NCBI RefSeq assembly: GCF_003018255.1
Contig: NZ_CP027440.1
Source: Escherichia coli
GTDB taxonomy: Bacteria > Pseudomonadota > Gammaproteobacteria > Enterobacterales > Enterobacteriaceae
Direction: 5' to 3' (one strand)
DNA: 64,000 nucleotides
Shown here: positions 29,101-32,100 of the stretch, piece by piece
How the letters are laid out: each line of letters opens with the position of its first letter
Position numbering within the stretch: position 1 is the stretch's first letter
Position numbers: made by a program

Positions 29101-32100
29101 GCAGAAAGCTTGTGTTTCATAACTTTTCCTTTATTCATCGCATGGACAATACGTACGCTTGAGATCAGGATTATCTACTTTGAGTATAACATCCTTGTGA
29201 AATCTCCCTTTCCTCATACCGCCAGCACTATATACTGCGGGTGGGAAAGGCGCGCAGAGGGAAATATAAGATTGTTAACTATTCCCCTCTGGAAATACGA
29301 CTTGTGAGCATAAGATAAATCTTAGCAAAATACAAATTAAAGATAAGAAAATTGTTAAGAAAGCTATTAACTATTGTTGGTAATATAGTTTCAAGTGGTA
29401 CTATAACTGGCTGTTAAGTGGCATTTATAACTATTAGGTGCAGAGATATTCGCTTAAATGGATTTGTTGCCCGGTGAAAAAGTAACTTGCGTTATAATTT
29501 ATGGTGTTGACTATTGAGCTATTCCAATAAAACCAGCCAACTTTAAACAAGCAACTCATATTAAGAGAGATAAACATTTGCCGCTGTTGGTCCTCGCAGG
29601 CCATTTACGCGGCAAAATTCCACGCGTAATCCTGGTATAAGCACTTCTGCGTCGCGGGGAGTGAATGCGGAAATATGGACCTGGACTTCTTTACGACCGT
29701 CGGAGGGGATAATGAATCCTTTGCCGCTTTTGCGATCAAAGGTTTTGACAATTCCTGTCATTTTACGGGACAAACAAATTCCTTACTGAAAATACTGCGC
29801 TGCACTATACGGGGTTAATAAAATAAAGCCAGCGATATTTAAGACCGCCGGACGGCTAAAATAAAATTTGCTTAATCTCAATTATCATGCGTTAATAGCT
29901 GCGTCGGTTTGAAAGACAGACAGCATACAAAGTAGTTTACTAAAGCAGTTCTCATTATCAGGCATTATCCCCTTCTTTTGAGTCTCTCTCCTGAACACTA
30001 AGTAGTTTCTGTACTAAAGCCCTGTTTGCCGAAAGGCCCAAAATGAAGGAAGTAAAATATGTCTAATAAAATGACTGGTTTAGTAAAATGGTTTAACGCA
30101 GATAAAGGTTTTGGCTTTATCACTCCTGATGATGGCAGCAAAGACGTTTTCGTCCATTTCACCGCCATCCAGAGCAATGAATTCCGCACGCTGAACGAAA
30201 ATCAGAAAGTTGAATTTTCTATTGAGCAGGGGCAACGTGGTCCCGCGGCAGCGAACGTTGTTACGCTCTAAGGTTGCCGTTATTACTCCACATCTCCATT
30301 TCCGCTGTCCATGTTGTCATGGTTCACAGTACCGCACATCGGCATTCGATGTGACGGAGCGAAATCCTTTAGGGGCAAAGTGTATTTTTTGTAAATCGAC
30401 GATGATCACCTTTGATAACGTCGCGCTGCAAATACGCACTGACCATGCGCCGCTGGATTTCACAAAATAATATCAGGCTCCCTCGTGGAGCCTTTTTTAT
30501 ATCTGCCTTATTTTTCTTCAACGCTGTATGTATAGTAAGCGATAACCTGTTGATTATTGAATCTTTCGGGGAGATGGCTTATAACATTTCTTACCTGACC
30601 AGGGTACCGGGAACCAACACCTTACTGGCGTGTTGCTGTCTTTCAAGACCAGAAGAGGTTAACAGTGAATATTGAAGAGTTAAAAAAACAAGCCGAAACG
30701 GAAATCGCTGACTTTATCGCGCAAAAAATCGCCGAGCTGAACAAGAATACAGGGAAAGAAGTCTCTGAAATTCGCTTCACCGCACGAGAAAAAATGACCG
30801 GGCTTGAAAGTTATGATGTCAAAATCAAAATAATGTGATTTTGTGAACATCACCCGTGCGAGGTGATGTTCCGCTTGTTGCTAATTTAGTGGCCAATCAT
30901 TGGCGCTTGTGGAATTAAGCGTCGGTACAATTCCTCCGGCACCGGGCTTTGCCATACTCCCGCATACATTGCGTAACCAATCACCGCAAACATAATCCCC
31001 AGAATCAGTAGCGTCATTAACCAGCCAGACAACGCAAAGGCTTTTTTATTTGCCGCAGGTTTTTGCAGTGAAAAGGTCAATGTTGAGGCTACCGGACATG
31101 ACTCTACGCAAGTCATACAGCCGGTACATTCCACTGTTCGTACCTGAATTAATTTATCGACCGGGATCCGTGATGGGCAATTTTTTGCGCATTTGCCACA
31201 GTCGATACAACTTTCGGCATTGCGACGAATCTTAAACGGCGATAATAGCGAAACCACGCCCATCAGCGCGCCATATGGGCAAAGATAACGACACCAGGCA
31301 TGGCGAATAAACAGGCTGGCAATCAGCAAAACGATCATGCTGATTAATGTCGCGGTCCCCATATGACGAAAGAAATTGAGCATTTTAACGTCCATCACCA
31401 CGCTGTAGGGCGACAACATAAAATAGTGAATCGCCTGAGCGGGCATCAATAACGCAATATAGAGAAAAAAACTCAACAGCAAATACTTCACGCCGCGCAG
31501 AGGAGTATCCAGCCAGCGGGGAAGGACAAATTGCCGACCAAACAGTTTGTTACCGAGATCGCCGATTAATTCAGAAAGCGTACCAACCGGGCATAACCAT
31601 GAACAAAAGGCCTTTTTTAATAATAGACTGATGACGATAAAAGCGACCAATAACAGCATCGCGGCGGCGTGGACGGACGGTAACTGGCCTGTTGCAAGGC
31701 TATATTTCAGATTCATCAGACCGGCAATCGGTAGCCAGCCTTCGATACCTCCCGGTCTGGTGACAAATGTCGTACTACCTGCCGTTTCGTAATAGCGCAC
31801 CCAATACCAGAACGTGATGGCAATATAAATATTCATTGCCAACAGTAATAATTGCGTCGCTTTACGCCAGGTCGTGGCATTGCGCCAGTCATTCCACGGT
31901 AATTTGCCGCCCGTCGTGCTTGGCCGCCGCTGCCAGCGGGTTCTTCTTTTCTCTGTCATGATTTTGCCAGTCCGTTAAGTTGCATACCAAATGCCACTAT
32001 TCTAGTTGTTCTTAACTGGCTGATATTGATTCAAATCGCGTTCAGGTCTTTCTTATGCAACCATGCTTCCAGAGCGGCAACACTGCGTGTAATTTCTTCG

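Follow-up and report, generated by a model that had tools for sequence, protein, structure and literature searches.

Evidence for UUG initiation of Escherichia coli cspH, a gene of a composite AT-rich block carrying phage-like cargo

The cold shock proteins CspA, CspB, CspG, and CspI have in common with CspH membership in the cold shock domain fold family, a length of 70 amino acids, and an N terminus of the form M-S-x-K-M-T-G. In CspG the aromatic residues W11, F18, F31, and F34 contribute to nucleic acid binding, whereas CspH carries T11, K18, Q31, and I34 at these positions; CspH thus lacks the full aromatic RNP1/RNP2 set (W11, F18, F20, F31, H33, and F34) and keeps only F12, F20, and H33. 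Loss of these aromatic surface residues is a known property of CspF and CspH. The genes themselves also differ: cspA, cspB, cspG, and cspI have an AUG start preceded by a thermosensor of ~160 nt, in contrast to the UUG start and probable short leader of cspH, and CspH has been reported not to be cold inducible (PMC4877382). The TTG start of cspH is already known, since it stands in the reference annotation and a 2025 paper gives UUG as the initiation codon of both cspF and cspH (PMC11648934).

We analyzed a 64,000-nucleotide stretch of E. coli DNA (the window) in which the closest described counterpart of cspH is the K-12 gene (b0989; NP_415509.1), annotated as a 213-nt coding sequence (CDS) with the same TTG. 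The two loci share the Shine-Dalgarno sequence, the upstream region, and the neighboring genes cspG, ymcF, ymcE, gnsA, and yccM, in matching synteny. They differ by two synonymous changes in the CDS, by 1 to 2 nt directly after the stop codon, and by an IS1D element that occupies the gfcA-cspH spacer in K-12 and is missing from the window. The 70-amino-acid product has the accession WP_000087763.1, from strain JNE23-011, which is 100% identical. A more distant relative, the cspF gene carried by the cryptic prophage Qin (b1558) and by lambdoid phages, 2H10 among them, encodes a protein with 76% amino acid identity to CspH. It shares the TAAGGA-N6-TTG start architecture and an upstream TATAGT and is likewise paired divergently, across a spacer of ~300 bp, with an ATG-initiated gene of the cspB/cspG type; however, it lies between the Q antiterminator and holin genes, whereas cspH in the window has no nearby phage genes and sits in the interval from gfcA (or appA) to yccM. 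Overall, we consider it highly probable that cspH in the window is the standard E. coli gene, translated from UUG and located in a composite AT-rich block of phage-like cargo. The features on which the analysis draws are as follows.

29121 to 29560, no strand: gfcA-cspH spacer, at 35.7% GC the piece richest in AT, and the site of IS1D in K-12
29561 to 29773, minus strand: cspH CDS (open reading frame; annotated in RefSeq for K-12 and the identical strain; Pfam and NCBIfam)
29759 to 29761, minus strand: ATG at codon 5 of cspH, the sole alternative start candidate, with no Shine-Dalgarno sequence of its own (AGG 19 nt away)
29771 to 29773, minus strand: TTG initiation codon of cspH (sequence; identical in K-12)
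29780 to 29784, minus strand: Shine-Dalgarno sequence AAGGA, 6 nt 5' of the TTG, with AGG at -10 to -8 (sequence)
29804 to 29809, minus strand: TATAGT, probably the cspH -10 hexamer (from conservation)
29774 to 30058, no strand: spacer between the divergent genes cspH and cspG (38.6% GC), with the promoters of both and the cspG leader
29903 to 30325, plus strand: cspG mRNA matching the cspA thermoregulator, with a 5' untranslated region of 156 nt and the CDS (Rfam RF01766)
30059 to 30271, plus strand: cspG, cold shock protein, ATG start (NF007378 equivalog, 179 bits; annotation)
30282 to 30470, plus strand: ymcF, 62-amino-acid CxxC small protein (RefSeq annotation; Pfam YmcF-like PF23641, 162.6 bits)
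30445 to 30675, plus strand: ymcE, 76 amino acids (PF15939, 185.7 bits; NF007379)
30475 to 30493, plus strand: intrinsic-terminator-like hairpin and T-run, 5 nt past the ymcF stop codon and within annotated ymcE
30665 to 30838, plus strand: gnsA, 57 amino acids, GnsA/GnsB family (PF08178, 122 bits)

At 29771-29773 the plus strand reads CAA, that is, TTG on the minus strand, and the open reading frame that this codon initiates encodes a 70-residue cold shock domain protein of the CspH/CspF subfamily. The product scores 176.1 bits against the NCBIfam equivalog NF012008 (cut-off 141), aligning over residues 1-70 of 70, and 81.7 bits against the Pfam cold shock domain PF00313 (cut-off 27). The Shine-Dalgarno sequence lies at a functional spacing for a UUG start, there is no in-frame alternative upstream, and a TAA in frame at -12 to -10 blocks any upstream extension of the reading frame. 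The TTG aligns with Met1 of the paralogs CspA and CspG. These observations support the TTG as the start of cspH, the spacing of the ribosome-binding site suiting it rather than the ATG at codon 5. An earlier note on this DNA had correctly placed the start at TTG on the minus strand, with the first ATG downstream (codon 5; 29759-29761), but its suggestion that the TTG is peculiar to this sequence does not hold: K-12 MG1655 and JNE23-011 share it, references that might have carried ATG at this position (K-12 and other E. coli) also carry TTG, and the state is species-wide. The sequence from -17 to +18, a 35-mer comprising the ribosome-binding site, the TTG, and codons 2 to 6, is identical in 5,365 of the 5,397 complete E. 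coli genomes with a match. Around the start, 4,886 of 5,406 E. coli records have the same 70-mer as the window, and the three variants of it that were sampled all retain TTG. A strain-specific mutation to TTG is ruled out by the K-12 codon and by this species-wide identity.

The earlier note had also singled out 29140-30880 as an AT-rich block, and windowed GC analysis bears this out. The block has 41.5% GC, compared with 52.1% for the whole window (z = -3.7), the lowest value in the window; no more than 0.18% of windows of this length reach so low a value, each of them overlapping the block, and the lowest same-length window away from it has 46.9% GC. The four small genes attributed to the block (cspH, cspG, ymcE, and gnsA) are present, but the count fell one short: five are annotated, ymcF having been missed. 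Two units make up the block, the gfc upstream spacer and the csp islet. The spacer (29121-29560) lies upstream of the gfc capsule operon and belongs to the accessory gfc/etp/etk segment rather than to the islet. In strain JCH8249 window positions 21278-29559 are missing and appA adjoins cspH; this 8.3-kb segment, which includes the gfc spacer, seems to be absent from about one-third of E. coli, and coverage of 29100-30900 reaches 80% or more in only 3,703 of 5,418 genomes. The five-gene islet of cspH, cspG, ymcF, ymcE, and gnsA (29561-30885), by comparison, is present in ~99% of E. coli.

Does H-NS, or another nucleoid protein like it, bind the block and silence it as a module? We regard this as doubtful. 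In its AT content the block does resemble an H-NS-silenced region, its low GC extending over 1.7 kb and falling to 33-36% in 29250-29560. The islet genes are phage-like and thus plausibly "foreign" DNA, the usual target of H-NS. In addition, the gfcA-cspH spacer of K-12 and other strains carries an insertion of IS1, an element that transposes with the involvement of H-NS. The resemblance to xenogeneic H-NS targets lies in AT-richness and phage-related gene content, but the most AT-rich part of the block is the gfc operon upstream region, not the csp genes. Members of the islet are, moreover, actively regulated, cspG by cold and cspH by replication stress. cspG keeps an intact cold-inducible thermoregulator leader (RF01766, full model 1-428, 155.1 bits against a gathering threshold of 78, E = 9.6e-42); the same search gave no match over cspH. 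cspH is induced 20-fold by AZT, with cspF, cspG, cspH, and cspI responding together (PMC11228462), and sigma70 drives transcription from its promoter in vitro (PMC4551910). With a cold-sensing leader on cspG and an inducible cspH, constitutive silencing of the islet is unlikely. A literature search found no occupancy or hns mutant data for the locus: full-text articles on cspH, cspG, gnsA, ymcE, and gfcA together with H-NS yielded no statement of binding, the supplements of PMC4288151 held no match for the locus, and neither did those of the IPOD-HR paper, in which the coordinates covered end before 1.05 Mb. The low GC is adequately explained without silencing by phage-like composition and an unusually high noncoding fraction: ~43% of 29140-30880 is noncoding, with spacers of 36-39% GC, and the islet CDSs have 39-48% GC and a third-position GC (GC3) of 42-45%, compared with 53.6% for the neighboring yccM.

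The phage-like character of the islet extends to its sequence. Positions 29565-30173, which take in the divergent spacer, are 76-77% identical to the cspF-cspB pair of Qin and of phage 2H10, where the pair is placed between the Q antiterminator and holin genes. Positions 30055-30418 are 74-75% identical to cspI-ynfQ, and gnsB, which follows Rz in Qin and phage mEp460, shows ~74% identity to 30646-30839. At the protein level, GnsA has 65-67% amino acid identity to GnsB of Qin and mEp460, and YmcF has 66% to its paralogue in Qin, YnfQ; for ymcE, neither Qin nor the phages have a counterpart, ynfN occupying that position. The pieces of the islet are paralogues of two lambdoid "moron" modules, the divergent cspF-cspB pair from between Q and holin and a cspI-ynfQ-...-gnsB module from after the lysis genes. 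The islet is not a prophage, as no structural, lysis, integration, or regulatory phage genes adjoin it; it holds cargo-type genes only and is flanked by gfcA/appA and yccM. One idea, drawn from flank homology, is that the islet came from a single phage through deletion of a lysis cassette between cspB and cspI. A recombinant origin of cspG from cspB and cspI was also considered and rejected: informative sites point to a switch near nt 70, but a maximum-chi-square permutation test was not significant (P = 0.10).

The reverse course, in which the islet is native, its low GC a by-product of short genes and long regulatory spacers, and the phage copies captured from the chromosome, appears improbable to us. 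It would fit the high noncoding fraction and the AT-rich spacers noted above, and many genera do have a divergent pair of cspH-type and cspG-type genes with no phage genes close by. The CDSs themselves are nevertheless low in GC, including at third positions relative to yccM, the complete yccM-gnsA-...-cspH order is found in no genus but Escherichia, and paralogues of both halves stand at standard moron positions in functional lambdoid phages.

The TTG start reaches well beyond E. coli. We compared 33 CspH/CspF-type genes from about ten enterobacterial genera and from phages (Escherichia, Citrobacter, Salmonella, Klebsiella, Raoultella, Enterobacter, Kluyvera, Lelliottia, and Superficieibacter, with Qin cspF and phage 2H10), and all 33 have TTG at the start. 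The AGG at -10 to -8, 7 nt 5' of the TTG, is invariant in the same set, and no gene has an insertion or deletion between AGG and TTG or between TTG and the ATG at codon 5. Of 66 third positions of codons, all but 4 vary, indicating that silent sites are near saturation, and codons 2 and 3 split synonymously (TCC in 12 genes and TCT in 10; CGT in 18 and CGA in 2), as expected if these codons are translated. The divergent cspG/cspB-type partners at the same loci, which served as a control, have ATG in 21 of 21 cases. UUG is ancestral to the entire CspH/CspF subfamily, and the uniformity of TTG and AGG across the 33 genes goes beyond what our literature search turned up. From this conservation we infer a functional reason for keeping UUG, which appears to have been selectively retained.

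The same alignment makes it very unlikely that the true start is instead the ATG at codon 5, giving a 66-residue protein from MTGIVK, with TTG maintained for some purpose unrelated to initiation: AAA-ATG at codons 4 and 5 is indeed invariant in all 33 genes, third positions included, in an A-rich context of the kind that favors translation initiation, while residue 5 varies (M/I/N/K/V) in partner csp genes with an unambiguous ATG1, but every homologue lacks a Shine-Dalgarno sequence within reach of this ATG (the sole one is 19 nt off and 7 nt from the TTG), TTG never varies even though a first base of A or G would be silent at a non-start codon, the 9 nt from TTG to ATG are free of indels whereas the leader 5' of the Shine-Dalgarno sequence varies in length, codons 2 and 3 vary synonymously, and the family models span residues 1-70. 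Given the contrast between the invariant AAA-ATG and the variable residue 5 of the partners, some initiation at this ATG in addition to the UUG may nonetheless occur.

Initiation of cspH at UUG would then proceed as follows. A short-leader mRNA is probably made from a promoter with the conserved TATAGT, which is common to cspH and Qin cspF and is found, as such or with one or two bases changed, at almost all of the 30 loci compared from other genera; used as a -10 element, it would imply a leader of ~24 nt. A scan for consensus promoters returned fewer sites than in shuffled sequences and none for cspH. The Shine-Dalgarno sequence UAAGGA, with its invariant AGG, would position the ribosome 6 to 7 nt 5' of the UUG, and initiator tRNA would decode the codon as fMet to yield MSRKMTG..., colinear with Met1 of CspA, CspB, CspG, and CspI. 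Most likely, UUG keeps initiation weaker or more factor dependent than in the ATG-initiated, cold-inducible divergent partner. We tentatively suggest that UUG may be a selected regulatory device tying synthesis of CspH and CspF to the state of initiation factors or growth, with AUG5 as a possible leader-independent second start; this reading, which we put forward as somewhat less likely than its negation, draws on the invariance of TTG in 33 of 33 genes, the saturation of silent sites, and the AUG starts of all divergent partners. Candidate states for such a dependence are IF3 proofreading, nutrient upshift, and replication stress. The idea that a conserved RNA structure conceals the UUG was rejected as unsupported: RNAalifold proposed a UUUGUC/GACAGG pairing, which lacks covariation, as each paired column is invariant or changed on one side only, and the single-sequence fold is no better than those of shuffled sequences (z = 0.73).

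For annotation, the 70-amino-acid, TTG-initiated model of CspH can be trusted and is not the product of a strain artifact. The locus is a textbook region of E. coli and has little discovery value in itself. In its islet, cargo modules of phage type occupy a fixed place in the core genome. In general, AUG starts are under purifying selection against GUG and especially UUG (PMC5622118). A weak start conserved this deeply beside an ATG-initiated partner makes the CspH/CspF subfamily a clean natural case for the retention of a non-AUG start codon.

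The region 29100-30900 is 100% identical to strain JNE23-011 and approximately 98% identical to most other complete Escherichia coli genomes, and its gene map was obtained by transferring the RefSeq annotation of JNE23-011 (window position = locus position + 27599).

Genes of the cspH locus, transferred from the RefSeq annotation of JNE23-011
28815-29120, minus strand, gfcA
29561-29773, minus strand, cspH
30059-30271, plus strand, cspG
30282-30470, plus strand, ymcF
30445-30675, plus strand, ymcE
30665-30838, plus strand, gnsA
30886-31959, minus strand, yccM

This is the known E. 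coli cspH locus, and no departure from its known state was found. Gene order is identical in K-12 MG1655, save for an extra IS1D in the gfcA-cspH spacer (K-12 L002:1779-2546), which is shared by some other strains (H8, H9) and is not in the window. In family scans, CspH matched PF00313 and the NCBIfam CspH equivalog (residues 1-70; 176 bits versus a cut-off of 141), and the downstream products matched the CspG equivalog, the YmcF-like family PF23641, PF15939 (YmcE), and PF08178 (GnsA). Situated between cspG and ymcE, ymcF is annotated in both RefSeq and K-12 and encodes a 62-amino-acid CxxC small protein; it is paralogous (66% amino acid identity) to ynfQ, which sits downstream of cspI in the cryptic prophage Qin.

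An earlier note had described the block 29140-30880 as more AT-rich than its flanks, and composition bears this out: its GC content is 41.5%, versus 52.1% for the window, making it the lowest 1,741-bp block present (the lowest elsewhere is 46.9%). The four small genes listed there are all present, but ymcF was missed, and the correct count is five. About 43% of the block is noncoding, as calculated from coordinates, which by itself lowers GC. The second-lowest dip in the window lies at about 42400-43100 (44.0% for 42001-43000 and 37.3% for the 440-bp window from 42627).

The block consists of two evolutionary units, 29121-29560 and 29561-30885. The first is the spacer upstream of gfcA, with 35.7% GC. 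Strain JCH8249 lacks window positions 21278-29559 (8,282 bp), and there appA adjoins cspH; the missing segment holds the spacer and group 4 capsule genes (gfcA-C were seen, presumably accompanied by gfcD-E, etp, and etk, as in the K-12 gene order). The junction falls at the cspH stop: JCH8249 encodes the same last four amino acids with other codons, and its stop is TGA rather than TAA. Because only 3703 of 5418 genomes gave at least 80% coverage of 29100-30900, and many matches start at query positions 461 to 464, the arrangement seen in JCH8249, the one strain inspected, is probably present in about a third of complete E. coli genomes. In K-12, the spacer carries a very strong RpoS SELEX peak, and also a weak, noncanonical FliA ChIP site, possibly not genuine according to its authors, whose motif resembles window 29344-29371.

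The second unit, found in approximately 99% of genomes, has 43.1% GC (39 to 48% for its genes), and GC3 in the islet from cspH to gnsA is 42 to 45%, versus 53.6% for yccM. Parts of the islet have paralogues among the cargo modules of lambdoid phages. Positions 29565-30173, which take in cspH, the spacer, and the 5' portion of cspG, show 76 to 77% identity to the divergent cspF-cspB pair of Qin and phage 2H10, which lies between the Q antiterminator and holin genes; 30055-30418 (cspG-ymcF) shows 74 to 75% identity to cspI-ynfQ; and 30646-30839 (gnsA) shows approximately 74% identity to gnsB, which in Qin and phage mEp460 follows the lysis gene Rz. No phage counterpart of ymcE was found, its slot being taken by ynfN. 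Only in the genus Escherichia does the full yccM-gnsA-ymcE-ymcF-cspG-cspH arrangement occur; by itself, the divergent cspH-type/cspG-type pair is found widely, in some cases beside phage lysis genes (loci L020 and L022). In a tidy scenario, a cspB-like and a cspI-like gene would have recombined, deleting the lysis cassette between them and leaving the islet. The flanking homologies (cspB-like upstream and cspI-like downstream of cspG) are consistent with it, and at sites distinguishing the two types cspG itself (30059-30271, plus strand) is cspB-like for the first ~70 nucleotides and cspI-like beyond, but a breakpoint test on these informative sites was not significant (p = 0.10).

The earlier note's observations were accurate, and its interpretation was partly right. 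As to the nucleoid-protein-silenced module that it suggested, H-NS binding is plausible from base composition and phage-like origin, above all across 29250-29560, but several observations argue against simple silence: the cold-responsive leader of cspG is intact, AZT induces cspH 20-fold, with cspA/F/G/H/I and ynfQ responding as a group (PMC11228462), sigma70 transcribes the cspH promoter in vitro (PMC4551910), both spacers contain SELEX peaks for minor sigma factors (PMC5493296), and one description has cspH expressed at 37°C without being cold inducible (PMC4877382).

A TATAGT sequence at 29804-29809 (minus strand) is common to cspH and Qin cspF, and it or a close variant lies approximately 31 to 36 nucleotides 5' of the TTG in nearly all other genera. 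This position implies a cspH leader of roughly 24 nucleotides, in agreement with the short leader reportedly found in Salmonella. Rfam searches gave no match over cspH and matched 29903-30325 (cspG) to the cspA thermoregulator family (155 bits). A putative hairpin in which the UUG region would pair with codons 5 to 7 was rejected, as it had no covariation support and folded no better than shuffled sequences. A predicted intrinsic terminator (hairpin and T-run, 30475-30493, plus strand) lies 5 nucleotides past the ymcF stop, within the annotated ymcE frame, and thus ymcE and gnsA would need read-through or their own promoter. At the same spot, 30428-30508 gave a subthreshold Rfam match to the Salmonella sRNA STnc220 (34 bits; gathering threshold, 60).

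On the minus strand, 29773-29771 reads TTG, from which the open reading frame listing gives a 70-amino-acid product, and the nearest ATG is codon 5 (ATG5; 29761-29759), confirming how the earlier note had read the start. An in-frame TAA at -12 to -10, within the TAAGGA ribosome-binding site, limits the possible starts to TTG or ATG5. The TTG is not peculiar to this sequence. The window, K-12 MG1655, and JNE23-011 are identical from -87 to +88, TTG included. The cspH TTG is already both reference annotation and in print, UUG being given as the cspF and cspH initiation codon in PMC11648934. A 70-nucleotide query around the start was 100% identical in 4886 of 5406 matching records, and three sampled variants, with changes at -28/-25 or codon 2, all kept TTG; a 35-nucleotide query from -17 to +18 (Shine-Dalgarno sequence, TTG, and codons 2 to 6) was matched exactly in 5365 of 5397 genomes.

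One scan of a genome collection with CspH gave 32 loci, belonging to several Escherichia species, Citrobacter, Salmonella, Klebsiella, Raoultella, Enterobacter, Kluyvera, Lelliottia, Superficieibacter, and metagenome-assembled Enterobacteriaceae. Thirty of these loci entered the start codon comparison and, with the window cspH, Qin cspF, and 2H10 cspF, made up a set of 33 CspH/CspF-type genes. All 33 start with TTG, have an invariant AGG at -10 to -8, and keep constant Shine-Dalgarno-to-TTG and TTG-to-ATG5 distances, and the leader 5' of the Shine-Dalgarno sequence varies in both sequence and length. Of the 66 third-codon positions, all but 4 vary within the set, placing silent sites near saturation, and the first base of the TTG is unchanged throughout, although A or G there would still make a start codon. 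Codons 2 (TCC, 12; TCT, 10) and 3 (CGT, 18; CGA, 2) show the wobble expected of translated codons. As a control, the divergent cspG/cspB-type partners in the same loci start with ATG (21/21).

AAA-ATG (codons 4 and 5) is likewise invariant in all 33 genes, third positions included, and is followed by ACA in 32 (codons 4 to 6, 29756-29764, minus strand); residue 5 is variable (M/I/N/K/V) in the ATG-initiated partners. A second start site, or the old "downstream box" idea, might account for this invariance, and ATG5 may serve for minor or conditional initiation. No homologue has a purine-rich element within reach of ATG5, the sole Shine-Dalgarno sequence being 19 nucleotides away.

On gene anatomy and conservation, rather than protein data, we take UUG to be the cspH start codon, and it appears to be selectively retained in the CspH/CspF subfamily. 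According to PMC5622118, purifying selection keeps AUG starts from being replaced by GUG and, above all, by UUG; in that light, a UUG fixed across a whole clade is mildly notable. The sole increment over what was known is that UUG and its fixed Shine-Dalgarno spacing are invariant across the CspH/CspF subfamily, unlike in the AUG-initiated partner.
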